NCBI GenBank assembly: GCA_016206155.1
Contig: JACQSC010000001.1
Span: 5,105 to 69,104, forward strand
Length of the DNA: 64,000 nucleotides
Direction of reading: 5' to 3'
DNA from: Candidatus Uhrbacteria bacterium
Lineage (GTDB): Bacteria; Patescibacteriota; Patescibacteriia; JACQRZ01
Below the pieces are notes generated by a model. It ran no database searches. It was not told where the DNA came from and saw only the letters and a list, made by a program, of their open reading frames with translations. Positions 3,477-43,011 of this stretch are shown piece by piece. How positions within the stretch are numbered: the stretch's first letter is position 1; every line of letters begins with the position of its first letter. The position numbers and the translations under genes were made by a program.

Positions 3477-3504
3477 GTTATATGGATTAGGGACTAGTAT
3501 TTAC

Positions 3505-3533
3505 TAACCCCTAACCCCTAACCCCTAACCCCT
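3505..3533. repeat. (CCCCTAA)x3.5 telomere-like heptamer array; G-rich complement could form a G-quadruplex
   Basis: taacccctaacccctaacccctaacccc lies between the convergent/adjacent genes; an inverted TTAGGG partial copy sits at 3487-3492. Confidence 0.8.
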
Positions 3534-14558: not shown

Positions 14559-15528
14559 TATACTCACCAAAAGACAACGCACGCGGTTCGCGTGTATTTT
14601 TGATAGTATGACGACGATCTACTACAAGAGCATCAAAGACAAGTCGCTTCGCACGCTTGAGACCGCGCGCGTTGGATGCTGGATTCATGTGGAGCAACCA
14701 ACCACCGCAGAGATTAAAAAAATTGCGGAGCAGTACGGCCTTGACGAGGGTCATTTGACGGATGCAATCGACCAGTACGAGGTGCCGCGCGTCGAGCGGG
14801 AAGGGGAGACGATTTACGTGTTTGTCCGCTATCCCACAAGTGATGGCGACGAAACACTGACCACGCCGATTCTCATCATCTTGTCGGAGAACATGCTTTT
14901 GACGGTGTGCCCAAAAGTGTTTCCGCAGCTCTCGCGTTTCATAAACGGCACGATCGAATTTTCTACGACGCAGAAAGTAAAACTTTTTTTGCTGCTGCTG
15001 CTTCAGATTTCCTCTGCCTATACATCATTTCTCAACCGCATTAACCGCGACATTCGCCGTCTTGGCATTCAGATTGAGCGGATCACAAGCAAAGAAATTC
15101 TCCAATTCGTTACGCTCGAGCGTATTGTGAGCGACTTTCTTTCAGCGCTCCTGCCTACGCACGGCATGCTCCAGAGCCTGCTTTCCGGAAAGATTTTTAA
15201 ACTTTATAAAGAGGACCAGGATCTTATCGAGGATATTTTTCTCAACAAAGGCCAGCTGATAGAAATGTGTCGCTCAAACATCAAGCTGATTGGAAACATC
15301 AGAAGCGCCTATTCCTCAATCATGTCGCACAACTTGAATCGGGTGATAAAGTTGCTCACGTCTTTGACGATTCTCGTCACAATTCCAACTATGGTTGCGA
15401 GCCTCTATGGTATGAACGTGCGTTTGCCGTTTGCAGATGCGCCGCATGCGTTCTGGGGCATTCTTATCTTTATCTTTGCAATTTCAACGCTCCTCACATT
15501 GGTGTTTGTCCGTAATCGTTGGTTGTGA
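14551..15528 (+). CDS. corA: Mg2+/Co2+ transporter CorA
   Basis: Signature YGMNV (GMN motif) before the two C-terminal TM helices. Confidence 0.85.
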   Translation: MYSILTKRQRTRFACIFDSMTTIYYKSIKDKSLRTLETARVGCWIHVEQPTTAEIKKIAEQYGLDEGHLTDAIDQYEVPRVEREGETIYVFVRYPTSDGDETLTTPILIILSENMLLTVCPKVFPQLSRFINGTIEFSTTQKVKLFLLLLLQISSAYTSFLNRINRDIRRLGIQIERITSKEILQFVTLERIVSDFLSALLPTHGMLQSLLSGKIFKLYKEDQDLIEDIFLNKGQLIEMCRSNIKLIGNIRSAYSSIMSHNLNRVIKLLTSLTILVTIPTMVASLYGMNVRLPFADAPHAFWGILIFIFAISTLLTLVFVRNRWL

Positions 15529-15767
15529 ATTGGTGGCCGTTTTGCCGTGTCACTTTACTTTTTTCTTTAAATATGTTTTAATAATACTAAGCGAGGCCAG
15601 TTCGCCTGTTTAGGTTATACCTGAAAAAGGCGACACTCGCGAAAATGTTTTTGCATGGGGCGGCTTTTGCTTCTGTTTCAAGACAAAAGCGGAGGTAGCA
15701 GTTGCCCTGTGCAATAAGGCCTGGGGAGAGGTTGAGGCGCCGAGCATCGCCTCCATTCCCCGGGACC

Positions 15768-15835
15768 GGGTCCGCCGCGCTACTTGCAAATCTCCAAGGG
15801 GTGAGTATGCGCTGGCGGACCCTTTTCTTTTTTCG
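15768..15835 (+). terminator. GC-rich hairpin plus T-run; possible 3' end of an unannotated non-coding transcript
   Basis: gggtccgccgcgc...gcgctggcggaccc followed by ttttcttttttcg. Confidence 0.35.
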
Positions 15836-15865
15836 TGAACACAAAGTTTATCCACAGATTTTAGA

Positions 15866-15893
15866 TTGACGTGCGCAATTTTTGTGCTATATT
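15866..15893 (+). promoter_or_regulatory. sigma70-like promoter TTGACG-16-TATATT for small peptide gene copy 1
   Basis: Consensus-like hexamers about 30 nt upstream of ATG 15926. Confidence 0.45.
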
Positions 15894-15925
15894 AAACAAT
15901 AACCCTTTAATTAAAAGCTATGCCC

Positions 15926-16042
15926 ATGTCCGCAATCGTACAGATGATCAAAAAAATGAATCAGGAAGCCCGATGTTTCTTTATTATTGTTGTCCTCATG
16001 ATTATTCCTGCGAATGCCGGGTATGGTTTGACTGCGAGATAA
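15926..16042 (+). CDS. conserved 38-aa hydrophobic small protein, copy 1 (MSAIVQMIKKMNQEARCFFIIVVLMIIPANAGYGLTAR)
   Basis: Paralogue at 17375-17491 is conserved at protein level (about 50 percent identity) with its own promoter and terminator; single predicted TM helix. Confidence 0.5.
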   Translation: MSAIVQMIKKMNQEARCFFIIVVLMIIPANAGYGLTAR

Positions 16043-16069
16043 AGGAAGCAACAGAGATCAAAAAAAACC

Positions 16070-16099
16070 ATTCAAAGCCCGGCAAACAAAGCCGGGTTT
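16070..16099 (+). terminator. intrinsic terminator (gcccggc-aaacaaa-gccgggt + T-run)
   Basis: 7-bp GC stem followed by ttgttcttt. Confidence 0.6.
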
Positions 16100-16548
16100 G
16101 TTCTTTACAAAAAATATTATTCCTCCTTTCAACTGTGTGCGTCGCCGGCTCGGAGGCGCGCGCAGAGAGAGGAGGAGCTGGTGAACCCCCCCTCTCGCAT
16201 CGTTGCAAAATTACTACGACCCCCGCCCCGAGGGGCGGAGAAAGGAGGTGCGCGTTGCTCGGACGCGCACAGGGAGTCACCACCCCCAACCTATTACGGG
16301 TTGGTGGATGGAACGTCAGAACGCTGGCGTTCCACATCGCCAACCGGCTTGGGCGCGGGGAGAGCGGGCAAGAAATTGTCCGCTCTCTCGAGGGGATCCT
16401 CGAGCCCGACCGAAAGGTCGCGCTCGAGGCCGCACTGAAGAAGTGCGGCCTGGATCCCAGCGGTGACCCGCTTGGAGGGTCACCGTCGTCCCGGTAGAGC
16501 TCGGGCGGTCGCGCAGGTCTTTGTACCTGCCGGCCGCCCCCACTTGCT

Positions 16549-17305
16549 TGGAAACCGGTGTCAGGTCTGGTTTTTATATTCTTCGCGTGTATACTGATCA
16601 TATATGGGAAGATCACCTCGAATCCAAGCACCAGATATAACCTTTCATATTATCAACCGTGGTAATGGAAAAAATACTATCTTCCATTCGGATAAAGACT
16701 TTCATGAATACCTCGAACTACTGCAATGCTACCAAGAAAAATTTGATATGCGCATCTACCACTATGTCCTTATGTCGAATCATGTTCATATTCTCGTTGA
16801 GCCCTCAAAGGAAAACTCAATTTCAAAATTCATGCAAGGGCTGACACTGGCGCACACCATGCGTTTTAATATGCGATATCAGTCAGTTGGTCATGTCTGG
16901 CAGGGACGATTTAAGAGCATTCCTATCGAGACAGACATATATTTTCTTCAGTGCGGACGATACATTGAACTCAATCCTGTGAGAGCGGGAATCGTGTCCC
17001 ATCCATCACGATATCCGTGGAGTAGCTACCAGTTTTACGCTCAAGGAAAACAAAATAAGCTCCTGAACACCGACCCCTTCTATGATGAACTCGGAAGTTC
17101 GACGTCTCAACGGAGAGAGCGATACACGCAATATATCGAAGAAGAATTGCCCAACATACATGCCCGCTCAGCAATACGATTCTCACAAGATCTTGTTTAC
17201 GGGAGTGAATCCTTTGTCAATAAGCTAAAAAATGATTTCAACTACGAACCAACTCGAAGGAAAGGTGGGAGACCGAAAATAAACCAGACCTGACACCGGT
17301 TTTCC
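16549..17305. mobile_element. IS200-like/REP-associated tyrosine transposase (RAYT) unit bounded by 25-bp inverted repeats
   Basis: Left GGAAACCGGTGTCAGGTCTGGTTT (16549-16573); right AAACCAGACCTGACACCGGTTTTCC (17281-17305), its reverse complement; the right repeat overlaps the transposase stop codon. Confidence 0.7.
16604..17293 (+). CDS. Y1 HUH transposase, IS200/IS605 TnpA-like / RAYT (COG1943)
   Basis: Motifs FHIINRGN, SNHVHILVE (HuH), HVWQGRF, YIELNPVRAGIV, YPWSSY. Confidence 0.85.
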   Translation: MGRSPRIQAPDITFHIINRGNGKNTIFHSDKDFHEYLELLQCYQEKFDMRIYHYVLMSNHVHILVEPSKENSISKFMQGLTLAHTMRFNMRYQSVGHVWQGRFKSIPIETDIYFLQCGRYIELNPVRAGIVSHPSRYPWSSYQFYAQGKQNKLLNTDPFYDELGSSTSQRRERYTQYIEEELPNIHARSAIRFSQDLVYGSESFVNKLKNDFNYEPTRRKGGRPKINQT

Positions 17306-17323
17306 CGGTTTTCCAGTTTTGAT

Positions 17324-17351
17324 TGACACGAGTTTTTTTTGTGATATTGTT
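17324..17351 (+). promoter_or_regulatory. sigma70-like promoter TTGACA-16-TATTGT for small peptide gene copy 2
   Basis: Positioned as in copy 1. Confidence 0.4.
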
Positions 17352-17374
17352 AAATATATCCTTAACTAGATGCC

Positions 17375-17491
17375 ATGTCAGGAATAGCGCACATGATCAA
17401 TAACATGATTCAGGAAGCCAGCCGCTTCTTTGCTTTTGTTATTATTATGTTCCTCGGATCAAGTGCCGGGCATGGTTTGACTACGCGATAA
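17375..17491 (+). CDS. conserved 38-aa hydrophobic small protein, copy 2 (MSGIAHMINNMIQEASRFFAFVIIMFLGSSAGHGLTTR)
   Basis: Paralogue of 15926-16042. Confidence 0.5.
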   Translation: MSGIAHMINNMIQEASRFFAFVIIMFLGSSAGHGLTTR

Positions 17492-17507
17492 AAAATACTA
17501 GAAATAA

Positions 17508-17539
17508 AACCAAAAGAACCCGGCCCCAAAAGCCGGGTT
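17508..17539 (+). terminator. intrinsic terminator (acccggc-cccaaaa-gccgggt + T-run)
   Basis: Same architecture as the terminator at 16070. Confidence 0.6.
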
Positions 17540-17696
17540 TGTTCTTTTTAAAGCACAAATTGCTCCCCCTTTTAAGTGTGAACACGGAAATTCGGCAGTC
17601 GTGTTTACAAAGAAAGGAGGAGAAACGGTGAATCTCCTTCCTTTCGCACCAGGCGACCCCTACCGCAATTTTTGCACATAAGGAAGAAGGAAGGAG

Positions 17697-18527
17697 GTGG
17701 GGATGCTGCAAGTGCAGCAACTCTGCTATACACCACCCTCAGTATACCTCAGGGAAGAGCTTGCACGGAGGCAAGTTCTTCGCCACCAGGTGGAAGCCTG
17801 GTGGCACGAGAGCGGTTGGGGACTCCCCCCAATCGTTCAGGCCATGGAAGGCCGGCTATGCGGCGTGCTTAGCCGGCACGTTGCAACATTTAGATACGAG
17901 GATGGCCTCTTCGCGCTCATGGCGAAAGAGGCTGGGCTCCTGCCCATGTGGCTGGAGTACGTCGGTGACAAATACGTCGACGTCTCCTCCTACAAGAGGA
18001 GCCTCCTCCGTCCGACTCTGTGCTCCGGCCGGGGAAGGAATGGGGGCCTCAAGCTCCGTAAGGAGACACTGGTCGAGAACGAGCAGTTTTGGCGGGGGAA
18101 ACCTTTCCAAAACATCGTGACCGATCATGGCGGGCAACTCGTCGCGTGGCATCACACGCTACAAAACGAGATGCTCGAGGGGCTCCTTGTGGAGAAGCCT
18201 GTGCGAACGGATTGCACCGGTTGGTTGGGGCGGATCGCCTCGACCGCCCACGGGTACTACGAAGCGTACATGAGCGTCTTCGTGGCCCATGGAGTGCTGT
18301 TTGAAGACTACCACGGTGGAGAGTCGGGCAACGCGCTCGACAACTTCACTGGAAGAGTCTTCGAGCCCGCATGGAAGCGGTTACACGAGCGATTCGGGGT
18401 TCGACCCCTGATCGTTCGACTCCCTTGGTGGGAGTCGCTGGGGTATTACCCTGGCGACCGGGAGTGGCGCTCGCACGGCGTCATCCCGCCACAGTTCCCT
18501 GACCTCCTGTCTGGCAATCAGGAGTGA
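17697..18527 (+). CDS. hypothetical Trp-rich protein in a GC-rich island
   Basis: 276-aa ORF preceded by a strong SD (GGAAGGAGGTGGGG-ATG); local GC is well above the flanks. Confidence 0.5.
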   Translation: MGMLQVQQLCYTPPSVYLREELARRQVLRHQVEAWWHESGWGLPPIVQAMEGRLCGVLSRHVATFRYEDGLFALMAKEAGLLPMWLEYVGDKYVDVSSYKRSLLRPTLCSGRGRNGGLKLRKETLVENEQFWRGKPFQNIVTDHGGQLVAWHHTLQNEMLEGLLVEKPVRTDCTGWLGRIASTAHGYYEAYMSVFVAHGVLFEDYHGGESGNALDNFTGRVFEPAWKRLHERFGVRPLIVRLPWWESLGYYPGDREWRSHGVIPPQFPDLLSGNQE

Positions 18528-20385: not shown

Positions 20386-21503
20386 CCAAAGAGTCACTCA
20401 AACAGACATTCCTTGAATTGGTTGCGATTAACAGCCACCATCCCGACGAGGCAGAGATTGCGAAGTATATCTGCGCTTTTTTTGATAGATCCGGAATACA
20501 ATGGAAGAAGGATTCGTTTGAAAATATTTTTGCCTCTATTCCCGGTGAGGGCGAACCGGTGTTGCTGTCGACCCATATTGATATTCCCGAACCGGCGCCG
20601 CACGTCAATCCTGTTTTTGAGGGTGATATCATTCGCTCTGACGGTACGAGTATCTTGGGTGCCGATCCCAAAACCGGCCTTGCGGTGATCCTTGAATTCG
20701 CCCGTGATTTGAAATTGGTGAAATTGGTGTCAAGTCCGAATTTCGAACAAAATTCGGACTTGACACCAATTTCGGCGCACGCGCCGGTTGAGATTTTGCT
20801 TACGCGCGGGGAAGAGAAGGGACTTCTTGGCGCGCTGAACGCTGACTATTCACTTCTGAAATCAAAAATAGGTTTTTGTCTTGACGAAGATGGGCCCGTG
20901 AATCAAGTAACGGTGAAGGCGCCAGGGTATGTGCGTTTTGACGCGTCATTCACCGGAAAAGTTGTGCATACGCGCGAGCCGGAAAAGGGGATTAACGCAC
21001 TCCAGGTGTTCTGTCATGCGGTACGCGATCTACCGTGGGGATACGCTTGTGACGGGGTTACCTGGAATATCGGACAATTCCAATCAGGCACTGCGCGCAA
21101 CAGCGTACCGAGGTACGCTGAGGTACACGCGGAGCTTCGGGGTTTTGACACCGAGAAATTGCGCAGGGAAGCGCAGCGCATCGCGGAACGTTTCTGCAAA
21201 ACAGCAGAGCAGTTTGGTGCGACCTGCGATGTGCAGCACAATGTGATGTTTGAGGGATATGACATCGATCGGAACCATCCGCTGTTTGCGCGGATGAACG
21301 TGGTATATGAGAAGATGGGCTTGACCCAGCAGTATCATGAAACCTACGGTGGTAGCGATGTCAATGTTTTTATTGCAAAAGGAATTACCGCAGTCACGCT
21401 CGGATCCGGCTACTACAACGCGCACGAATACACCGAGTATGCAGACCTTGCAGATATGGCGCAGATTTATACATTCTTGACAGAATTTTTGAGGGTGCAA
21501 TAA
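20382..21503 (+). CDS. M20-family metallopeptidase (PepT/ArgE/DapE clan) carrying an in-frame palindromic insertion
   Basis: M20 motifs (STHIDIP, GADPKTGLAVILE, EEKGLLGA). Confidence 0.7.
   Translation: MTKESLKQTFLELVAINSHHPDEAEIAKYICAFFDRSGIQWKKDSFENIFASIPGEGEPVLLSTHIDIPEPAPHVNPVFEGDIIRSDGTSILGADPKTGLAVILEFARDLKLVKLVSSPNFEQNSDLTPISAHAPVEILLTRGEEKGLLGALNADYSLLKSKIGFCLDEDGPVNQVTVKAPGYVRFDASFTGKVVHTREPEKGINALQVFCHAVRDLPWGYACDGVTWNIGQFQSGTARNSVPRYAEVHAELRGFDTEKLRREAQRIAERFCKTAEQFGATCDVQHNVMFEGYDIDRNHPLFARMNVVYEKMGLTQQYHETYGGSDVNVFIAKGITAVTLGSGYYNAHEYTEYADLADMAQIYTFLTEFLRVQ
20712..20772. repeat. 52-nt perfect palindrome with a 9-nt tandem leader, inserted in frame in the M20 peptidase
   Basis: aaattggtgtcaagtccgaatttcgaacaaaattcggacttgacaccaattt preceded by a gaaattggt duplication; encodes about 25 extra residues between conserved M20 motifs. 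Confidence 0.7.
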
Positions 21504-23918: not shown

Positions 23919-23922
23919 AAAA

Positions 23923-24006
23923 AGGGTATAGCGTTTAGGGTACAGGGTATAGGGGGGGGGAATTCTCTTCTAAACCCTAAACCCTAAACCCTAAACCCTA
24001 AACCCT
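23923..24006. repeat. inverted heptamer arrays: G-rich TTTAGGG/AGGGTAYA block followed by (CCCTAAA)x4
   Basis: gggtatagcgtttagggtacagggtataggggggggg ... ctaaaccctaaaccctaaaccctaaaccctg; the two halves are mutually complementary. Confidence 0.8.
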
Positions 24007-24954
24007 GTGACTGTTTTTGCCTACATCATCGCGCTGTTCTTCCTCTTCTACCTCTTGGGCAAGAGCGCGGATGTTGTTGTCAAGCGAGTGCGACTCATTT
24101 CTGAACGGCTCGGTATCCGCTTGTTTCTCCTCGGCATTATCTTGGGGCTTTTTACCTCGTTGCCGGAAATTTCCATCGGCATCAACTCGCTGGTTGACGA
24201 CGTTCCCGACCTGTCGCTGGGAAATCTCATGGGCGGATTTATAGTGCTCTTTGGCCTCATCATGGGGGTGAGCTTGATTTTGAATAAGCGCATTAAAACT
24301 GACGGAAATCTTTGGCACTACGCGCCGATTTTGATTTATTTTTTCCTCCCGTTCCTCTTTGTTCTCGATGGACACATCCAACGACAAGAGAGCCTCGTGC
24401 TTATCGCGGCGTACGTCGGTCTGCTGATTCATCTGTACCGTGCCTACCACAAAGAAGTTTCAACAGAGAAGAGAGATGTCGAATTTCGCCTTCCTCAGAT
24501 ATTTAACGATATGCTCATCATCCTCGTTGGGCTCATCGCCGTCACGCTCATTTCCAATGTCATTGTTCGCATCACGGAGGGGCTGCTTGTTGAGGCCCAT
24601 GTGTCACAATTCTTCATCGGCGTTCTGCTTTTTTCAGTGGGCACGAACCTTCCCGAGATTATTGTTGCTTTTCGCGCGTGGCAGAAGCACATGAAAGAGC
24701 TCACGCTCGCGCATCTTTCGGGTTCCGCGATGACCGATCCGTTGTTGATCGGCATTTTTTCTTTTATTCAGCCCTATACGATCGAGGTTAATGGGTCGTA
24801 TATGCTTTTTTTCTTTTTTAATTTTGTGCTGTTTGTGCTTGTCGGGATATTTTATAAAACCGGTAAAGTATTGTCACGAACAGAGGGGATTGTGCTCTTG
24901 GGGATCTATCTGTTGTTTCTGTATGTTGAGATTACTTTTGGATTGAAGTTCTAA
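24007..24954 (+). CDS. Ca2+/Na+ antiporter (CaCA/YrbG family)
   Basis: Two alpha-repeat signatures (GNLMGG..; VGTNLPEIIVAF); GTG start abutting the repeat. Confidence 0.7.
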   Translation: MTVFAYIIALFFLFYLLGKSADVVVKRVRLISERLGIRLFLLGIILGLFTSLPEISIGINSLVDDVPDLSLGNLMGGFIVLFGLIMGVSLILNKRIKTDGNLWHYAPILIYFFLPFLFVLDGHIQRQESLVLIAAYVGLLIHLYRAYHKEVSTEKRDVEFRLPQIFNDMLIILVGLIAVTLISNVIVRITEGLLVEAHVSQFFIGVLLFSVGTNLPEIIVAFRAWQKHMKELTLAHLSGSAMTDPLLIGIFSFIQPYTIEVNGSYMLFFFFNFVLFVLVGIFYKTGKVLSRTEGIVLLGIYLLFLYVEITFGLKF

Positions 24955-26377: not shown

Positions 26378-26609
26378 TGTCACTATATACCACGACTTAC
26401 AGCAGGCGCGGGGGAAACGGTGACTGTCCCCGTTTCTACCCCGTTTCTACGACGGCTTATGGTTGAAAGAGTTATGCACAGCCGTTGCTTCTTGACGCCG
26501 TTTTTATCTGCTATACTGGTGGCATGAGGAAATTTTTCTCTCACATTTTTTATTCATACACACGGTGAAGACGCGTAAGTCTTCATTTTTATTTATGTCA
26601 AGAAACACT

Positions 26610-29600
26610 ATGACAAGAAAAGCGCATGCGTTCGTCTCAAAGGTCCTGTATCCGATAACGATTGCGTCAATGGTTCTGTGGTCCTTGGGTCCGGCGGCGT
26701 TTCCGGTGCCGGCATACGCGGCAATCACCAGAAACGAGGCTGTAGCGCTTGCGACAGGCGCTCAGAGCCTCGGTGTGTCAAGCAGCCCTACGGCGGTTTT
26801 TGGCTTGAACCTTAATATAAGCGCCGGAGAGACATTTTCCCGCGCGCGGGTGGTTATTGATCCAAGCAATAGTTTTGATCCATCAGGAGACCTGGCGGCG
26901 ATTGCGCCCGGCGCCACATCTGGCATTGAGCTATATGACGACGCCGGTGCGACAAGCGGATCATTTGATGCGACCGATCAGGCAATTATCAGCAATAATT
27001 CCATTATTCAGAATCCGCGATTTTCAAAATTAGCGCTTGGCGCCAATATTCTGACACTTGATCCAAACGTTGACACCACCCTTCCCTATATGCAGGGACA
27101 GCTGGTTTTTGCAAACGTGACGGCAAATGCGGCTTCAACAGGGGCTTATGCGTGGCACATCGTGACGGCGAACGGAACGGGAACCGGGGCGGGAACGACA
27201 TTGCGCCTTGACGGGAACACAACCGCCGCGCCGACCTTTTTGGCAAGCTCCCGTCTATCCATGATTGATACGCCTGCGTTTGGGAGCGGTTCGTTTACCA
27301 TTAATGGAACGTCAAACACAACCACCTATGCCTCAACGGCCGCAACCGCGTCGCTTGGTGATATCATTTATTATCAGACAGGTACAACGGCCGGACGCTG
27401 GGGGGTCGTAACTACGAATTTTAATGTAACGGCAGCTTCGGTGAACGGCGCAAATCTTGCGAATGGTACGTACAAAATAGCAAAATTTCCGAGCATTACA
27501 GGTTCATTTGTCGTTCCTGCAAGCGGCAGTTTCACGCCGACTGGTGCATACGGAACGACGACAACGCCCGTTGTCGGTGATCTTGTTCTTTTCCAGCAGG
27601 GAACAGGCGATGCGCGATGGGGCATGGTTACAAACAATACGTTGTCGGGGGGTTCATTTGCCATTAACGGTATGACGCTTGCGGCAGGAACCTATCGGAT
27701 TAGCACCCTTGATACAAGCGGGGGAAACCAAATGGGATTCCAAACCGCGCTCATGAACAACACCTCAATGTCAATGGCGTTGGGCGAACTTTCATTCGTT
27801 TTGACAACACAGAATCCTGCAGCGACTGATTATGGCTGGCACATTACAACTACGGGAGCAACGGGTGTGAGTGGCGCCGGCGCAGGAACGTTGCGGCTTG
27901 ACAATGCAACAGCTGCTCCAACATACGGATGGACCGCATCACTTGTGCCAGATATCGCACAAGCAGTTGCCGCAGATGAGCTCGGCGCGAACGAAGGAAA
28001 TGATTACTTTGTCGCAATCCGAACATCTGCCGGCGCGCAAAATGGACGGGCAGTTCGATTTATCATGAATCCTGGTGATATTGTGTTCAGCGCAAACACG
28101 CCCACCACAACGCCAACGCTTGTTTCCTCGCCGACCTATACTGTCTCGACAACCGCCCAGCAGTCGCAGTCGGCAGGGGCTAACACTACGGTCATGGACA
28201 TGACCAACGGATTTTTGCGACTGAAACAAAGCAGTAATTTTAAGGCAGTTGCGCGTGTTCAGTTTGGCAGTACCGATGCAGCAAAAACCCTGACATCCAT
28301 TGCGATTTCTTTTGCCACTGCAAACAGCACAACGCCGACGTGGACCGCAAGCGCGGCAACATCATCTGAACTCCTTGATCTTGCCGCAACCGGTGGAGGT
28401 ATTTCACTGTGGAAAGACGGCGGATCGCCCGGATTCGGTTTGAATGGCGCAGGCGATACGCAAGTGACACTTGCGGCAAGCCCGGTATATGGCGCAAGCA
28501 ATGCCTTTACCATTACTCCTGCAACAGCGCCGACCATCGCGTCGGATGATGTGTACTTTATCGTACTGAAATCCGATACGTCCGGTGTGACAAACAATAA
28601 TGCGTTTACCGTGAACATGGCAACAAACGCAATTACTACAAGCGGTACATCGCCGACAATCGGCGTATTCTCAACACCGCCGATTGCCATGGATACCACC
28701 GCGCCGACGATTGCAAGCGTATCTGACGTTCCCGGACAATCAACGAAGTTGAGCGTTCGATTCAGCGAGCCGGTGCAGAAAATTAACGCGGCCGGAGCAC
28801 TCACAACAACTGATTTGACCTATACAAATGACGCAACAGACGGATCAGGACGGACCGTGAGCTCGATTTCCCATAATCCGGGCGCGGATATTGCTGAACT
28901 CACCATGAGCGGCGCGCTTGTGGCCGGCGATTTTGACGGAACGCCGTCATCTCTTGCCGCCGGAACAAGTAAGATTGAGGATATGGCGGGCAATGTCATG
29001 GGAACAACAGCGCGCAATCTTGGCAGTCCCCTGATCATTACAACCTCGGTTATTCCTGCGACGTATGTCGGATCGGTCTATGACGCCACAACGCCGCTTG
29101 TCACATTTGCGGCATCCGGCGGAACAGGAGCAAAGACATTTTCAGGAAATACGCAAGCAGATACAGACGCGCTTGTCGCGCTTCTTGGCGCAAGTCCCCT
29201 TGCCGGGGCTACGGGAAAGCTCACGGGTACGGTTCAGCAAAATACCGCAGGAACCAGGAATGTGACGATAAAGGTGACCGATGGCGTAGCCGCAACAGCA
29301 ACAAAACAATTTACGATTAATGTCGCTGCAACGCAAGGAGGCGATGTTCCAGGATTGACAAATGTCACGCCGCCGTCAGGCTCGCAGGGCGCTACAAACC
29401 TATCAGTCGCCATCACCGGCACGAACACAAGCTTTACCAGCGCCAGCGCGGTTGCCTTTCTATTGAATGGAACGGCCGACACCAATATTACAGTCGGAAC
29501 AGTTACCGCAAATAGCGCAACATCCATAACGGTTCCCGTTACAATTGCGGCGGGCGCGGCAACCGGCAGTCGTGATGTGCGCGTGACAACCGGCAATCAA

Positions 29601-32600
29601 GTAGTCATTATGCCAAGCGGATTTAATGTCACCGGCGCGGTCGCGGCAGGGCTCAACCTTGTGTTCCCGACTGATTCGGCAACAGGCATTCAACTGCCCC
29701 AGCCGGGATTTAATTTTAATCCATCAACAAATACCACATTCACTCATTATCGCATTGTATTGAGCGCAACTCAGGATTTTGCAACGGCGCTGTGGAACTA
29801 TGTTTTTCCAAAGCCGGATACGCTTGGCACGAACGGAAGCCATTGCAGTGCGACATCGTGTAATGTGAACTATTCAGCGGGAAATTTTCTCACAATCACT
29901 CCCGCTTCGACGCTCACATCAAATACAACCTACTACTGGAAAGTTGAAACCTATCAGGATCCAACACCGACAACGCAGTTCGCGTCTACGGATGTCATTG
30001 AGCTGAACAGGCGGGAAAACACGCCGGTGCGAAGTTTTACAACCTCGGCTTCTGTGACGGATGTTCAGCCGCCGCAAATAGAACATCGTCCAATTGTTCA
30101 GGCGCGCGCAAACGCGGTAGCTACCGTGTACGCGCGTGTACTAGACAATGTTGCAAACGCGAACACAACGCCTGCCCTTGCCACAACATTGTCTGCCTGT
30201 GCCGGTACCGGATGCACGCCTTCGACATCAACACTGCCAAGCGCAAGCGCGACTGATGGCGTTGTCGCCGGAACGCTTGCGCAGAACGGATACTATAGTT
30301 ATGTTCTTCCCTCCGCGTTTATTACCGCGACTGTCGGAACGGTTGTGCGGTATTATATCACCGCTTCTGACGGTACCAATACGAGCAATTTTTATCAGTC
30401 GGGCGGGACAACGCCGTTTCAGTTCACAACTACGGCGGCTATCGCAACCAGCGGTGTCACGATTACCGGTACGGTAAAAGATACCAGCGATACGTGCGCC
30501 ACCGGCGTGCAGGGCGCGCTTGTGTTTGCCGAAGGGAGCGGGTTCAGCGCGACAACAGGCGCGGACTGCGCCTACACACTGGGTGCGGCAAATAACGGAT
30601 TGGCCGTAGGATTCCCATATGATCTTGTTGTCGCGAGGGATGGATACTCAACCCAGCGGAGAGATGCCGTTTTGGCAGGGTCAACAAGCGTTGCGGTCCA
30701 ACTGGGGCAGGGCGCTACCGGCGGTTTTGGTGGAGATACCACACGGCCCCGTGTACTGCGCTCAATGCCCGGTGACAAGATGCAGAATATGCCAGGAAAT
30801 GATTCAAACATGAGGATTTTGGTTGTGTTTGATAAACCAATGAGCCAGTCGTCGGTATTGACAAACGGCAACATGGTGGTCAATTCCGTGAATGTTCAGA
30901 CAGGGGTTCTTACAAACATTACCCCAAACGGATCATGGGCATATTACTCAACCTATACCATGCCGTTTGGCGGGACAGAATCAAATGTCGCGGTATGGTC
31001 GTTTACCGGCACAAATACATTCGGTGACAACAAGACCATTGCCGTAAAAGTGACGCCGAGTGTTACTGATTCATCAGGGAATGCAGTGCAGGGGAACCTT
31101 ACTGACGGGAGTTATTCGTTTTCGTTCACAACCGGATCAACCGCAACATCCGTTGGTTTTAACACGGCAACCGGAACGTTTGCCGATGGCGGAGTGTTCG
31201 GTCAGGGTCAAAATATCGCGCCGCACGTGACGACCACTGCGCCGTCCATGGGTTCGCCAAGCGTACCGCGCAATACGAAAATCATGATTAATTTCGACAC
31301 CTCAATGGCCGATGATGCCGCTGGTACGTATACGCTTGCAAGCGCGGTGAAGCTGTTTGAGGTGTCCTCGGCAGGCGCCGAAACAGACGTCACATCATCG
31401 GCAATAAACGCCGTCACGCTTACATCTGATAAAATGGCCGCAACTGTTACACTGAAAACAACCTATCCAAGCGCTTGCACAGGCGCGTCCTGTGGCGTGT
31501 TTAAGGCAACCACCCGTTATCGCCTGAAGGTGCTTGGGTCGGCAAAAGCCGCAAATGGCATGACCATGCGCGCCCCGGGACAGGAAACGCAAGTGGCGTT
31601 TATGAGCGACTTTACAACATCCGCGTCATCCGACACGGTCGCGCCAACTATTGTCGGATCTGATCCGACGACGAACGCGACCGACGTTCCCTCGATGCTC
31701 GGGTCTGTGAGCGTGTCATTTGATAAGGATATGGATTCCTCATCGCTTACGACTTCAACGATGACTCTGACGACCGGCTCAACAGCGGTTACTGGAACGG
31801 TTGATTATCGACCGATGGAGCGAACCGCGTATTTTATTCCTTCGCGCGTTTTGACGCCGACAACGCAATACACGCTCACTCTCACTGCGGGGGTTCGAGG
31901 AATCAATGGCACGGCAATTGCGGCGGCAACGCGCGCGTTCACAACCGGATCTGCCGACACGTCCGCGCCTACTGTCACATCACTGACCGCGGATGACACA
32001 AACATCTCAATATCATTCAGCAAACCGATGAACTCATCGCCGGCAACCGATACGACAAACTTTACGTCAAGCGTATTGCGTGTTGCCAGCTACACGGTGA
32101 AATACGGAACAGCAGGGTTCAACGCGGCAACTGCGGGTACAACGCTTACACTTCCAGCAACAGCACAGATTAGCTATGACGGGAAGAACAATTCTGTGAT
32201 GATTTCAGGATACCGCCCGACGAGTACCACTGCGGCACAAGTTCAGGGACAACAATTATATGTTGCGGTTGCAAACGCAAAGGACATCGGCGGCAACGCG
32301 ATTAGCACATCAGGGACTGCTCCGGATACGGCAAATACCAGCCGCGCAACCGTGCAGAATAGCGCGACGACCCAAGGGCAACTTGGGCCGATGACCATTA
32401 CCAATGACATGATGAAGGCGGTTGGTGATTTCAAGCCAATCACATTTTCCTCCGCAACATTCGGATTTGCGCCGCAAACAGAAGTACGACCGTTCAATAT
32501 GATGACCGGCACCACCACAATTTACGGCGTGCATTTGTCTCTCTCACGGCAAATACCGGATGGAGGCGCCATCGTGCTTACCTTCCCGCAAGGGTTTAAT

Positions 32601-35600
32601 GTATCCGGCGCAAAACAGGATATCAACTCTCCGAAACGCCGCGACATAAACGGGCCTGGCACAGGCACGGTCACGTTCAAGTGTCAGACGAACGTCGCGG
32701 GAATGTCGGCGAAATCCTGCGGAGGCGGCGCGGCAAATGCAGATGATACCGGAACCGCGCAAGGCGGCCTTGCCGATGACGGTGTGGTGGTAAACGCCAA
32801 CGCGCGAACCATTACCATTTATGTGAGCGGGGCAACCAATAGCGAAGGACATGATGTTCTTGATTTTGACATCGCGGGCATCGTTAACTCAACCGTTCCA
32901 AAGGACTTCAACACGACCGGCTATACCGTCAGCATCGCGACAAAGAACGGTACGACAAATCTTGAAACACTGAGCTCCGTGCCATTTTTTATCCAGTCGG
33001 CAGGGACTACCACCTATACGCTCACCGGAACGATTACGGCGACAAACAACGATCAAAACGGGACAATATCGGTATTCCTTGACTCGCCGATGACCGGCCC
33101 GCTTGAGGCAACGTCCGCGGATTTTGCCGGCGGGCAAACAGCAACATATTCATTTACCAATCTTCCGCCCGGTGATTATGGATTGAGAACAGAACCGTAC
33201 GTAAAGATTAATGATACGACTGAATTCCTTGGGAAATTTCCTGAGCGTGTGATGATGAGCGCAAACACCGTGCGCAATTTTACGCTCTCAAGCGCAACTG
33301 CCGCAGGCACCGGAACCTCCGTGACCGTTTCCGTAGACGGACCCTCAAGCGAACCCATTGATATTTTCGCAAATGGCCCGGCCGGATTCCGCGTAATGCA
33401 AAAGACGCTTGATACCAATGCCGGCGCTGAAAACTTTACGATTCGCCTGTCAAATGGCGATTGGTTCCTTGGCGTCGGACCGCAAATGCCAAAAGGACAG
33501 ATGTCTGGCCCGCCGCCTTCGCCGAGCTATCTCCCGCCGCGGCCGGTCAATATCCGTATTAACGGCGGTGTATGTACCATTGAGGGAACTGAGACGTGCA
33601 CCAAGGCATTCACGTTGACCGCATCAACAAAACAAATACGTGGCGTTGTAAAGGATCTTGCGAATAAAGTTATTGCAAACGCGGAAGTGTATGCGTATTC
33701 TCCCGCGGGAGCATCAATGGGAAACTTCGCGAAAACAGATACGACAGGAACGTTCATCCTGAACATCACCGAAGGCGTATTTAATGTCGGCGCCATGATT
33801 CAGGGTATGCCGCCTTCAAAAGAAGTGCCGGTTGAGGTAACAAGCCACACTACGACCTATCTCAAGATAGACGGAGCCCAAGCAGCGATTAGGCCTGACG
33901 CGGCCGCGACGGCGTTCGTGTTGAAACTCGCAAAGCCTGATTATACGATTTCGGGAAAAGTGACTGACGGAACAAATGTCATCAATGGAGCGTCAGTGTA
34001 TGCGTATAAGCAGGGGGCGCCGGGACACGCAACGGCTCCGACAGATAGCTCCGGCAATTATTCACTCTTCGTGTCAACGGGTACATGGAAGGTCGGGGTC
34101 TTTTTGCCGAAATACGGAAATCTTACGGAACAGACCGTCACAGTCACAACGGCAAATGCGACTGACATCAATTTCTCACCAACAGGAACCGGAACATTCT
34201 ATGCCGTGTCAGGAACCGTGACTGTTGGCGGCGTTGCCCGAGAGGGGGCGCAGGTGCGTATTAAGAACAGCGGCTATTTTAATGACACACGTACCGATTC
34301 ACTTGGCGCGTACAGTTTTAATGTGCCGCAAGGGACAGGATACATTGTTGACGGATTTGTGCCGGGTGTAGGAGAGCTCGCGCCATTGACGGCATTTGAT
34401 GTTTCAGCAGCAGTTGAGAACAAAAACCTTACGGTCGCGACGTTGCGCACCATCACCATGACATTCTCCTCATCGGTGGCAAATGCGTTTGTTGAACTTC
34501 GCTCAACAACAGGATCAAACATTAGAAAGCAGATAAAGAATTCGACAACCGGAACGCTGTCCGCGCCTGACGGGAGCTATATCGTGAATGTCGATCTTCA
34601 GGGCGCGCCGATTCCGTTTACAGCCGTTGCCGCAACTGACGGAAATACAACATACGCAAGCGCAACGGGCGTTGTGACGGTGAATGGCGATGAGGGCCTT
34701 ACGGTTACAGTTCCCACCCTTCGAGCGCTTACCATTACTGTTCAAGATGGATCAAGTGTGGCACTGGCAGATGCATGGGTTGAACTTATGAATCCGACCA
34801 GCGGTGAACATTTCGGAAGCAAAACAGGAACAAATGGTCAGGCAACACTGCGCGCGGCTGACGGCACATACTTTATTAATGCAATGAAACCGGGGTATTA
34901 CCGTGCGCCGACATCGCTTACGGTGAGCGCGAACGCAGCCCAGACACTTACGCTTACGGCAGCGACACGAACCATAGCAGGAACCGTATATATCGGATCA
35001 ACGGGTGCCGCGAATTCGTTTGTACGCGCCGAAAAGCAGGGTGGCGGGTTTGGCGGAGCAATGACAGACGCAAACGGACAGTATACGCTCTCTGTGGCAG
35101 AAGGAATATGGAGAGTATTCGCAAAAGCTGAAGGATATGCGGAAGCGGAACTGAGCGCCACCGTTGATACAACAACCGCATCGGCGACCGGCAAAGATAT
35201 TACCCTTACTACAACCGTTACGGTGTCAGCGCCTAAGTCAAAGCCGATGACGCCGTCAACCGGCGGCAGTATTGAAGATACATCAGCAGGCATTAAAGTG
35301 AATGTGCCGGCAAACGCGCTTGGCAGTTCATCGTCAGCCGGAAACATGCAGGTAAAGAAAACAACGAACTTTACCAAAACAGAAACCGCGCGACCGGTCG
35401 CGGCAGTAGAGATTAGCGCGACTGACGCAAATGGCACGCCGATCAAAACATTGACAGAAAGCGTAACAGTTGAATTGAGTTACACAAAAGCAGAACTCGC
35501 GACAACAGCATCCTCTTCAGATACATCCATTAATACAAAGTCAGAAATTGAAAAACTCGATGTTGGGTTCTGGGATGAATCGGTATCAAACTGGACGACC

Positions 35601-37775: not shown

Positions 37776-37804
37776 ACGCTTCGCACGCGCCGCTCTATTG
37801 GAAC

Positions 37805-37847
37805 GGGGTCAGGCACAGATTCGCTTCGCGAAACTGAGCCTGACCCC
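37805..37847. repeat. hairpin with GGGGTCAGG/CCTGACCCC stems (same stem core as the tatD insertion)
   Basis: ggggtcaggc-N23-gcctgacccc. Confidence 0.5.
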
Positions 37848-37856
37848 ACTGAACAA

Positions 37857-37899: not shown

Positions 37900-37958
37900 G
37901 TGGTATACTAGAACCAACTATAATGTAATGTCTAGATTCCCATAAATTATTCATAGAC

Positions 37959-37987
37959 TGGATCCCGGCCTTCGCCGGGATGACAAA
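37959..37987. repeat. GGATCCCGGC-CTTC-GCCGGGATGAC palindromic element (family B, intergenic copy)
   Basis: Reverse complement of the copies inside uvrB and dus. Confidence 0.7.
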
Positions 37988-37992
37988 TTGCT

Positions 37993-38766
37993 ATGTCATC
38001 CTATTACAAAGGCAAACGATCACGAAACATCTTTGATCCTTTATCTCATGAGCCCTTTAGGGTCTCTCGTTCCAAGATCGAGCTTTTTTCCTCCTGCCCC
38101 CGTTGTTTTTATATCGACGTGCGGCTTGGTGTTGGCCAGCCTCCGGGATTTCCCTTTAATCTCAACTCCGCAGTTGATACTCTTCTTAAAAAAGAGTTTG
38201 ACATACATCGTAGCATGAGCACCGCGCATCCCCTCATGGAGGCGTATGGCCTTGACGCGGTGCCGTTCAGCCACGAGAAAATGGACGAGTGGCGCGATCC
38301 GTTCAAGGGTGTTACGTTTCTCCATGAGCCTACGAATTTTTATGTCACCGGAGGCGTTGATGACGTTTGGCAAAATCCGGAAAAGGAGCTTATCATCGTT
38401 GACTACAAGTCAACAAGTAAGGAAAGCGAGGTAACCATCGATGCGGAGTGGCAGCAATCATACAAGCGCCAGATGGAGATTTATCAGTGGCTCTTTCGCA
38501 ACAACGGTTTCTCCGTATCTGATACGGGGTACTTTGTTTACTGCAACGGCAGGCGCGATGTGGCTGCCTTTGATGGAAAACTTGAATTTGACATTAAGCT
38601 GATTCCCTATACCGGCAGTGACTTGTGGATCGAAAGCGCGCTTGCCAGCATGAAGCAACTACTCATGGCAGATGTGGTCCCTGAACCGGGCGACTGCTGT
38701 GATTTTTGTACCTATCGCCGCGATGCGCGAGAAGTCTTAACGAAACTCGTAACTCGTAACTCGTAA
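37993..38766 (+). CDS. PD-(D/E)XK nuclease, Cas4/RecB-like (solo, no cas neighbours)
   Basis: N-terminal Cys motif (C-X2-C) plus C-terminal CCDFC for an Fe-S cluster; IIVDYKS (D..K) and QMEIY (QhxxY) motifs. Confidence 0.6.
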   Translation: MSSYYKGKRSRNIFDPLSHEPFRVSRSKIELFSSCPRCFYIDVRLGVGQPPGFPFNLNSAVDTLLKKEFDIHRSMSTAHPLMEAYGLDAVPFSHEKMDEWRDPFKGVTFLHEPTNFYVTGGVDDVWQNPEKELIIVDYKSTSKESEVTIDAEWQQSYKRQMEIYQWLFRNNGFSVSDTGYFVYCNGRRDVAAFDGKLEFDIKLIPYTGSDLWIESALASMKQLLMADVVPEPGDCCDFCTYRRDAREVLTKLVTRNS

Positions 38767-38840
38767 CTCGTAACTCGTACAGGGATTGGGAGGCGTCGTT
38801 TTTCCAAATTACAAGTTACGGATTACGAGTTACTGATTAC
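38744..38840. repeat. (CGTAACT)x5 heptamer array followed by inverted AGTTACG copies
   Basis: actcgtaactcgtaactcgtaactcgtaactcgtac ... caagttacggattacgagttactgattac; overlaps the stop codon of the Cas4-like gene. Confidence 0.8.
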
Positions 38841-42793: not shown

Positions 42794-42883
42794 GGCCCAA
42801 ACGGCAGTGCGTTAAGCAAAAAAATGTCCCACCACACAAGATGTCCACATACGATAATTGTTCGGATGTGATACAATTATATT

Positions 42884-42916
42884 AACCCCTAACCCCAAAC
42901 CCCAAACCCCAAACCT
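42884..42916. repeat. C-rich heptamer array (CCCCTAA/CCCCAAA variants) downstream of ileS
   Basis: taacccctaaccccaaaccccaaaccccaaacc. Confidence 0.8.
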
Positions 42917-43011
42917 ATGGCCCCCCAAAAAAAGAAAAAGCAGACAACCGGCATCAAGCTGCCAAAGCTCGTTCGCCACACCAAGAAAGCAAAACGGAAG
43001 TAATTTATTTT

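Follow-up and report, generated by a model that had tools for sequence, protein, structure and literature searches.

In a 64,000-nt stretch of Candidatus Uhrbacteria contig JACQSC010000001.1 (assembly GCA_016206155.1; in the following, the window), a single HUH-Y1 transposase gene lies between two terminal inverted repeats and forms with them a discrete unit of approximately 755 bp (positions 16550–17305 of the window). This unit is most probably a TIRtron and its protein a TIRYT, which belongs to TnpAY1 subclass 2.1 or, in the other nomenclature, to group 1 of the REP-associated tyrosine transposases (RAYTs). We attach a probability of about 0.75 to this assignment, taken jointly with the explanation given below for the related repeats. 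TIRtrons as a kind are already known. The new aspect, a modest one, is that short inverted dimers of related repeats are present in frame inside genes of a Candidate Phyla Radiation (CPR) genome, in the manner of Rickettsia palindromic elements (RPEs). The unit would extend the TIRtron class into the CPR, and the dimers indicate that essential genes can accommodate miniature repeat derivatives in frame.

TIRtrons were introduced by Di Nocera, De Gregorio and Rocco (2013) as RAYT-like genes that are flanked by long terminal inverted repeats and not by GTAG REPs; many of them share the sequence GGGGWSAS (PMC3733652). Their repeat families are moderately abundant in the genomes and often occur as dimers, and some of the repeats are partly self-complementary (PMC3733652). 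According to Quentin et al. (2018), most TIRYTs fall into subclass 2.1, which is identical to group 1 of Bertels (PMC6006769). The subclass is characterized by the motifs NHVH, W[EQ] and YIELNP and by an SS tail; its proteins have a median length of 238 aa (PMC6006769, Table 1). Group 1 is the largest RAYT group and, together with group 6, most similar to insertion sequences (ISs); it shows 6.3% duplicates, and some of its copies are located on plasmids (Bertels et al. 2017, PMC5581495). In the literature searched, the terms TIRYT and TIRtron were confined to PMC3733652 and PMC6006769, and neither a biochemically studied member nor a paper on such elements in CPR bacteria was found.

The unit resembles the published TIRtrons in its architecture. 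A RAYT-like HUH-Y1 gene is located between long inverted repeats whose distances from it are short and vary little. The right repeat extends into the 3' end of the gene, which is the arrangement designated 3'ov in the figure legends of PMC3733652. Furthermore, some of the repeats are partly self-complementary, and repeat copies in the window are moderately abundant and often occur as dimers, although these are variants of the unit's own repeat. The unit differs in its CPR host, a group outside the sampling of PMC3733652, and in the location of the dimers. Those of the window are mostly in frame in genes, whereas PMC3733652 reports in-frame intragenic copies, many of them in repair genes such as uvrB, for GTAG/CGTC REPs and not for the repeats of TIRtrons.

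The gene encodes an intact open reading frame (ORF) of 229 aa, which scores 62.6 bits with the Pfam family Y1_Tnp (PF01797; cut-off 23). All 17 columns that are invariant in an alignment of 51 homologues (37–80% identity) are kept in the window protein; they include N59-H60-x-H62 of the HUH motif, G96, W99, R102, Y120, E122, N124 and R127. The characteristic motifs read N59-H60-V61-H62, W99-Q100, Y120-IELNP125 and S140-S141, and the C-terminus contains GRPK; both S140-S141 and the C-terminal GRP(K/R) are also conserved among the aligned homologues. With these motifs and its length, the protein possesses every sequence characteristic listed for subclass 2.1, and it shares with this most IS-like RAYT group a low copy number. 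The claim of a first-pass annotation of the same DNA that a single Y1 transposase with all HUH motifs is present was thus confirmed.

A structural model computed with AlphaFold2 from the alignment (pLDDT 91, pTM 0.88) was compared with solved structures. The top match was E. coli TnpA_REP bound to a REP hairpin (4er8_A; E 4e-9, TM 0.74 on the target), followed by the transposases of ISDra2, IS608 and IS200 with E values of approximately 1e-6. Residues 140–229 form a helical extension in the model (helices 142–212) that has no Pfam match; in particular, no helix-turn-helix or DnaA_C-like C-terminal domain was detected by Pfam. Judged by sequence, the protein is an intact HUH-Y1 enzyme that is closer to RAYTs than to IS200 transposases. 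The NCBIfam model of REP-associated tyrosine transposases (REP_Tyr_transpos, NF047646) is the best-scoring one, with 70.4 bits at an equivalog cut-off of 80; the NCBIfam IS200 model NF033573 yields 22.4 bits, which is far under its cut-off of 55.

These scores bear on the possibility that the unit is an ordinary IS of the IS200/IS605 family, which copies only itself and to which the short palindromes of the window are unrelated. We regard this as very improbable. The HUH-Y1 catalytic fold is indeed common to the window protein and the TnpA enzymes of IS200, IS608 and ISDra2, and cutting and rejoining of single-stranded DNA is presumed for both. The unit also behaves as a discrete mobile block, and a single plasmid record contains several copies of some distant homologues. 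However, the window protein contains Y---NP instead of Y---Q, and the ends of the unit are inverted repeats and not asymmetric subterminal hairpins on the same strand. No long ORF adjoins the transposase gene and tnpB is missing. Short relatives of the repeats are present as well: outside the unit, the window shows a 25-fold enrichment of their motif, and cognate dimers accompany homologues elsewhere. Identical copies of the whole unit with no related short repeats, the pattern that the first-pass annotation named as contradicting its view, were not seen in the window: tblastn detected one gene copy in the 64 kb, and related repeats are enriched.

A homologue search gave 2943 matches, which stem from Uhrbacteria, Magasanikbacteria, Omnitrophota, Nitrospirota and many metagenomic contigs. 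Distant homologues (at most 38% identity) were found on 30 of 72,556 plasmids; the phages searched yielded practically none. Three homologues of approximately 34% identity are encoded by a 24.3-kb record of P. aeruginosa (NZ_CP116719.1; 14239–14931, 16538–17230 and 22170–22862). They are annotated as transposase and located among toxin/immunity-like cassettes (deaminase, EndoU, endonuclease); two of the three are identical and lie within a larger duplicated block. These copies were considered as a sign of unit transposition and rejected, because they belong to larger duplicated cassettes and therefore give no evidence of such an event.

The two terminal repeats are complementary in 23 of 24 positions, with one mismatch, and the central 22 nt match perfectly; no inverted-repeat match of this kind arose in 100 shuffles of the sequence. 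The flanking inverted repeats that had been annotated are therefore real, but they comprise 22–24 nt and not 25 nt. As annotated, the right copy overlaps the stop codon: the reading frame ends with ..AAC CAG ACC TGA, and the TGA at 17291–17293 lies within the repeat. The core of the repeat is GGTGTCAG or GGTGTCAGG. Folded as single-stranded DNA, the left repeat has a free energy of -3.3 kcal/mol (z -2.25). Upstream of the gene, the box TGTATACTGA is unchanged between the window and the relative L204 in the alignment, and comparable TATAAT/TATAC boxes are present in the relatives L002 and L205. The box was not picked up by a consensus promoter scan; it is a putative promoter of a leaderless or near-leaderless mRNA. 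No target-site duplication was found at the flanks of the unit when the window and the loci of its relatives were compared. An independent assembly (Logan SRR12113428, contig L001) corresponds to the window from 16543 to approximately 18033 and stops 7 nt left of the left repeat. This contig end could reflect a polymorphism at the left junction or the poor assembly of the GC-rich block located there.

Four closely related loci were compared with the window. Their transposases share 80% (L204), 68% (L205), 65% (L002) and 46% (L203) aa identity with the window protein, and their repeats are GGAAACCGGTGTCAGGTCTGGTTTT, AGAAAATGGTGTCAAGTCCCATTTTT, AAATCGGTGTCAGGTCTGGTTT and GAAAAATGGTGTCAGGTCTGATTTT, respectively; in L002, the repeat and its perfect complement flank the homologue. 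All four loci carry repeats of the type GGTGTCA[GA]GTC, and the type of the window's left repeat flanks the homologues in L002, L204 and L203. Between the window and L204, DNA identity is approximately 85% from repeat to repeat, and similarity is gone immediately outside both. The five loci represent five different gene neighbourhoods. The unit of the window is surrounded by corA, a small ORF and the GC-rich block, and that of L204 by small ORFs. L205 adjoins smpB, L002 has a pilin gene on one side and a prepilin peptidase gene on the other, and L203 follows an unannotated upstream ORF. Because homology ends at the repeats and all five contexts differ, the unit is, according to these alignments, discrete and mobile: the whole 755 bp or so have been relocated between lineages, and the repeats are its exact ends.

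This mobility is at odds with the reading put forward in the first-pass annotation, namely a REPIN-RAYT system. In its canonical form, a domesticated, immobile and vertically inherited single-copy RAYT maintains a REPIN population that serves the host. Part of that proposal holds. The Y1 HUH protein is nearer to RAYTs than to IS200 (70 versus 22 bits), its fold is closest to TnpA_REP of E. coli (4er8), and, as for this enzyme and the Pseudomonas RAYTs, a single gene lies between inverted palindromic repeats and REPIN-like dimers are dispersed around it. On the other hand, the score stays below the RAYT cut-off, the signature and the length are those of subclass 2.1 and not of 2.2 or 2.5, and the protein is approximately 65 residues longer, owing to its helical C-terminal extension. 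The conserved 5' tetranucleotide that had been suggested as a check was not seen: none of the repeat feet carries the guide tag GT[AG]G, and the outer ends read GGAA or GA[A/T/G]A (GAAA, GATA or GAGA). Moreover, the gene is not at a syntenic site in any of the four relatives examined, and the dimers do not reproduce the flanking repeat. The change of context at 80% identity and the end of homology at the repeats argue for movement of the whole unit and not for vertical residence. A canonical REPIN-RAYT system is therefore unlikely, and we favor the TIRtron assignment.

The repeats are not a peculiarity of the window. A metagenome scan yielded 80 further homologue loci (34–48% identity), 78 of which had enough flanking sequence for a repeat test; here, the best inverted repeat between the upstream and the downstream flank had to beat every shuffle control. 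Approximately 60 of these 78 homologues passed. Nearly all of their repeats contain GGGGTCAGA, GGGGACAGA, GGTGTCA[AG]G or GGGGTCGGTGAC; these cores correspond to the sequence GGGGWSAS described in PMC3733652. The exact sequence GGGGTCAG or GGGGACAG is present in most homologue loci. Among the homologue loci, 24 measure 5 kb or more (312 kb in total); they contain 31 extra copies of the locus's own repeat, many of them inverted dimers (at most 3 mismatches in 18 nt). In related genomes, too, gene-less short inverted dimers of each unit's own repeat are found at scattered positions. Cognate repeat families therefore generally accompany these proteins, and on this comparative basis the repeats are a conserved, family-wide feature of the transposases.

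Related repeats are also abundant in the window. The core GG[GT]GTCA[AG] occurs at 23 sites, compared to 5.2 in shuffled sequences. When the motif was made stricter by adding the outer GA[ATG]A, 16 sites were counted, compared to 0.65 in shuffles with a maximum of 4. Most copies are inverted dimers, of which the window contains five, and all dimers are oriented like the unit, their GAAA ends pointing outward. The folding energies as single-stranded DNA are -27 to -29 kcal/mol for the perfect dimers (z approximately -10 to -11) and -3 to -8 kcal/mol for single arms. Other palindromes with the GTCAGG core, as annotated, do exist elsewhere in the window, and the search for more inverted pairs that the first-pass annotation had recommended was successful as far as the motif is concerned. 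The dimers are sister variants, of the GTCAAGTCC, AAAATGGTGTCAGGTTCC and TAATGGGGTCAGGAGCC types, and not copies of the unit's own repeat. For these variants, paralogous units are suggested, because repeats of the GTCAAG type and of the AAAATGGTGTCAGGT type flank TIRYT genes in L205 and L203. The arm GAAATTGGTGTCAAGTCCGAATTT is identical in the peptidase gene of the window and in a UvrD-like helicase gene of L002; its presence in unrelated genes of two genomes requires mobility. The coordinates of all features are listed in Table 1.

Table 1. Position of the transposase unit, of dispersed repeats and of repeat arrays. Positions refer to the window unless a relative is named; free energies are for single-stranded DNA.
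Feature	Position	Strand	Details
Left terminal inverted repeat GGAAACCGGTGTCAGGTCTGGTTT	16550–16573	+	Core GGTGTCAGG; weak internal stem AAACCgG/CtGGTTT
Conserved box TGTATACTGA	16588–16597	+	-10-like TATACT 8 nt before ATG; alignment with L204
HUH-Y1 gene, TIRYT / RAYT group-1-like, 229 aa	16604–17293	+	ORF, Pfam, NCBIfam, alignment, AlphaFold2 model
Right terminal inverted repeat	17281–17304 (17305 in the feature list)	-	Covers last four codons and TGA stop
Partial tandem copy of the right repeat's outer end, CGGTTTTCC, 9 nt	17306–17314	-	Direct sequence reading
Inverted dimer GAAATTGGTGTCAAGTCCGAATTT / reverse complement	20720–20773 (with duplicate, 20711–20773)		24/24, 6-nt spacer; preceded by 9-nt outer-half duplicate; -28.8 kcal/mol, z -11.4; M20/PepT-like peptidase gene; peptide LVKLVSSPNFEQNSDLTPIS, 16-aa insertion vs PDB 3gb0
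Solo repeat GAAACGGGGACAGTCACCGTTTC	26410–26440 (duplicate to 26451)	-	7-bp stem and 11-nt outer-half tandem duplicate; intergenic, upstream of 3736-aa ORF
Degenerate inverted dimer GGAACGGGGTCAGGCACAGATTCGC / TTCAGTGGGGTCAGGCTCAGTTTCGC	37798–37851		Intergenic, directly after 3736-aa ORF; -20.4 kcal/mol, z -6.7; similar dimer in L002 at 1560–1625
Diverged inverted dimer	49980–50057		27-nt spacer; fold z -5.9; uvrB, variable linker before UVR domain; peptide EKMVSSSFF...RYLTPLS
Perfect inverted dimer GAGAAAATGGTGTCAGGTTCCATTT / reverse complement	58365–58420		25/25, 6-nt spacer; -28.4 kcal/mol, z -10.5; metG; peptide EKMVSGSISEKMEPDTIFS, ~15-aa insertion vs PDB 2csx
Outer-half copies, then perfect inverted dimer GATAATGGGGTCAGGAGCCATTAA / reverse complement	60003–60025, then 60026–60074		24/24; -27 kcal/mol, z -10.7; tatD; peptide EKMGSGIIGIMGSGAINLMAPDPII, 18–20-aa insertion vs PDB 1j6o
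Tandem outer-half pair GAAACGGTGTCAGCA-GAAACGGTGTCTGC	60360–60390	-	tatD; nearest counterpart of the unit's own repeat in the window; peptide ADTVSADTVS, ~10-aa insertion vs PDB 1yix
Solo repeat GATAATGGGGTCAAG	62305–62330	-	3' end of ORF 60732–62318; core complement gives TGA stop
Outer-half duplicates, window	17306–17314, 20711–20719, 26441–26451, 60003–60025, 60360–60390
Outer-half duplicates, relatives	L002 7051–7063, 7827–7838, 3160–3175; L204 680–695, 1455–1475
Heptamer arrays	23920–24012, 38744–38840, 3488–3532, 42178–42214, 42880–42924, 58809–58839, 60205–60241

Four of the dimers and one pair of half-copies are located in long ORFs, and the reading frame is kept in each case. According to the comparison with known protein structures, the dimers appear to sit in loops or linkers, where they add 15–20 residues. 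Likewise, L002 contains two dimers in frame within one helicase gene. The reading xTG-GTG-TCA is common to all six in-frame left arms. Both the TIRYT gene and ORF 60732–62318 take their TGA stop from the complement of the core (CCTGAC or CTTGAC). The dimer in methionyl-tRNA synthetase (MetRS) is absent from the 17 closest Uhrbacteria orthologues (60–84% identity), in which this loop is hypervariable; the MetRS allele of the window was found in three further samples. The MetRS of the window shows 100% identity to a protein that NCBI assigns to Candidatus Uhrbacteria bacterium, and its annotated start corresponds to M16 of the longest ORF. No exact target site could be derived, the MetRS loop being hypervariable and the flanks of the unit lacking a duplication. 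A protein search in which three dimer-encoded peptides were joined as one query gave no candidates.

In-frame palindromes of this kind are reminiscent of the RPEs, which Ogata and colleagues reportedly described in 2000 as in-frame insertions in housekeeping and repair genes. We know of no transposase for RPEs. RPEs and intragenic REPs have in common with the dimers of the window that short palindromes sit in frame in housekeeping and repair genes, uvrB among them, and add approximately 15–30 residues in tolerated loops. In contrast to RPEs, the elements of the window are only 50–80 bp or so in length, and their core is shared with the ends of an identifiable transposase unit.

One could suppose that the intragenic palindromes were created or are kept independently of any transposase, for instance through repair (template-switch or hairpin-directed), through selection for mRNA structure or as RPE-like elements with a mechanism of their own, and that the core is common because the ends of the unit derive from the same pool of repeats. 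Several properties of the dimers fit this idea: the intragenic arms are perfectly complementary (24/24, 25/25 and 24/24), though the dimers differ from each other and from the repeat of the unit, while two dimers in intergenic or linker positions are degenerate. The common reading xTG-GTG-TCA of the left arms and the fact that the dimers in MetRS and UvrB begin with six bases that coincide with E-K codons of the host are also compatible with it. However, such a process accounts neither for the GAAATTGGTGTCAAGTCCGAATTT arm in unrelated genes of two genomes nor for the GTCAAG-type and AAAATGGTGTCAGGT-type repeats that flank TIRYT genes in L205 and L203, and cognate dimers are general in the family. 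We therefore give this explanation only a slight chance, and prefer the spread of the repeats by enzymes of the TIRYT family.

By analogy with TnpA_REP and the IS200/IS605 enzymes, the transposase would bind its own repeat on single-stranded DNA, for example on the lagging-strand template. H60 and H62 would hold a metal ion, and Y120 would cut and rejoin the DNA at or near the conserved core. The dimers would be spread in trans by an enzyme of the TIRYT family, either that of the window or paralogues elsewhere in the genome; the window enzyme itself may move the dimers of the window. In such a gene-dense genome, presumably only in-frame insertions into tolerated loops survive selection. The first-pass annotation had regarded the transposase as offering a mechanism for several palindromic families. 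For the dimers with the GTCAGG core, which are sister variants found mostly inside genes, this view may hold, but the ATCCCGGC hairpins and the heptamer arrays described below are left unexplained by it.

More tentatively, and with less than even odds in our estimation, TIRYTs of Uhrbacteria and related CPR bacteria may actively seed dimers of 50–80 bp into coding sequences. As such sequences make up nearly all of these genomes, the dimers would survive mainly as in-frame peptides in essential genes (metG, uvrB, tatD, and helicase and peptidase genes). If the link between enzyme and dimers is true, the unit offers a tractable model for the entry of RPE-like palindromic insertions into proteins. 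If the seeding by CPR TIRYTs is true, an RPE-like phenomenon would for the first time be associated with an identifiable cognate transposase, and the origin of in-frame palindromes would become testable. The dimers also matter in practice: they add 15–20 residues to housekeeping proteins and can break metagenomic assemblies, which affects the annotation and the alignment of CPR genes.

Several points weigh against a TIRtron whose enzyme mobilizes these repeats. REP-like sequences were not found near subclass 2.1 genes (PMC6006769), and the flanking 16-mers of group 1 occur only about 12 times (PMC5581495); in contrast, obvious flanking repeats and dispersed copies exist here and in approximately 60 of the 78 metagenomic relatives. 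The core GGTGTCAG matches GGGGWSAS at seven of eight positions. The unit's own arm is absent from all dimers in the window; their outer and inner segments differ, and only the core is shared. The case for activity rests on sequence comparison, and the coverage of the genome amounts to 64 kb. Finally, single arms fold weakly: 19 of 109 arms beat shuffles at p ≤ 0.05, and the mean length of the perfect stem is 4.1 compared to 3.2 in shuffles. The notion that all repeats are REP-like hairpins was dropped for this reason, as the stem is not universal. It is real in some subfamilies (ATCAAT/ATTGAT, AATTGG/CCAATT, AAAATGG/CCATTTT and AAACC/GGTTT), with compensatory changes in several. Given the weak folding of single arms, it is uncertain whether a hairpin or the plain sequence would be recognized.

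In several genomes, partial tandem duplicates of the outer half of the repeat, 9–17 nt in length, are repeatedly found beside full repeats. They may have been left behind by slippage or by successive rounds of cutting and rejoining. Their use as a marker of the cleavage site was considered and discarded: the junctions vary (after GGTG, GTCA(G) or GGT), so that no single cleavage site can be inferred.

Tandem heptamer arrays form a further group of repeats in the window. (GGGTWWA)n faces (TWWACCC)n, and (GTAACTC)n faces its own complement; the arrays are mostly located at gene ends. One of them gives the C-terminus (LNPKP) and the stop codon of MetRS, and another one is in frame in tatD and contains GGGGACAG. 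A contig scan of genomes with the pattern GGTGTCARGTN{10,40}ACYTGACACC gave at least 120 loci, with approximately 70 matches expected by chance according to an estimate, so that these loci serve as examples only. Among the matches listed (at least 120 loci, 845 kb), none encodes a TIRYT, which is not a test of an association either way. They include inverted arrays (GGTGTCA)n...(TGACACC)n in Acidobacteriota, Gemmatimonadota, Chloroflexota, Planctomycetota and Desulfobacterales. Examples are L028 (4179–4259) and L054 (698–780); the heptamer is the core of the unit's repeat, and no TIRYT gene is located within 8 kb. Within the tentative seeding scenario, cutting and rejoining by TIRYTs could also have given rise, as a side effect, to the outer-half duplications and to inverted heptamer arrays like (GGTGTCA)n in other phyla.

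The palindromes of a second family, TTGTCATCCCGGCGRAGGCCGGGATCCAGTC, form a GC-rich stem of 8 bp and are found at 37956–37986 (-), 48871–48901 (+) and 55554–55581 (+). Two copies keep the reading frame, one in uvrB and one in dus. The former encodes VIPAEAGIQ, amounts to an insertion of approximately 16 aa compared to UvrB in the PDB, and is followed by a repeat-like half GAGAACGGTGACAGC at 48908–48925. At the junction of uvrC and dus, the palindromic repeat GGGCAAGGGATAAGCCCTTGAGAC and its reverse complement are present (54892–54961), and a partial copy with 84% identity lies 896 nt upstream in uvrC (54001–54050).

The region directly left of the unit (16180–16549) has a GC content of 65% and contains about ten consecutive near-perfect hairpins, with a minimum free energy of -216 kcal/mol as RNA. 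It shows no similarity to any fetched locus; one of its frames is protein-like (..TLAFHIANRLGRGESGQEIVRSLEGILEPDRKVALEAALKKCGL..). This GC-rich block is not part of the unit, because the homology to L204 ends at the repeat. A scan of the whole window with Rfam at gathering thresholds and with ARAGORN found nothing, and an Rfam scan of 15500–17800 by E-value gave only chance-level matches; the unit and the adjoining block therefore correspond to no known RNA. A hydrophobic ORF of 38–40 aa (..GYGLTAR and ..GHGLTTR), each time with a terminator, occurs twice with 73% identity (15924–16111 and 17373–17552) and brackets the GC-rich block and the TIRtron. Further downstream, at 17697–18527, a 276-aa ORF with no Pfam match has a GC content of approximately 60%, compared to approximately 47% in the genome, and may be foreign DNA. 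Nearly all long ORFs of the window are on the + strand, and one ORF comprises 3736 aa (26565–37775).

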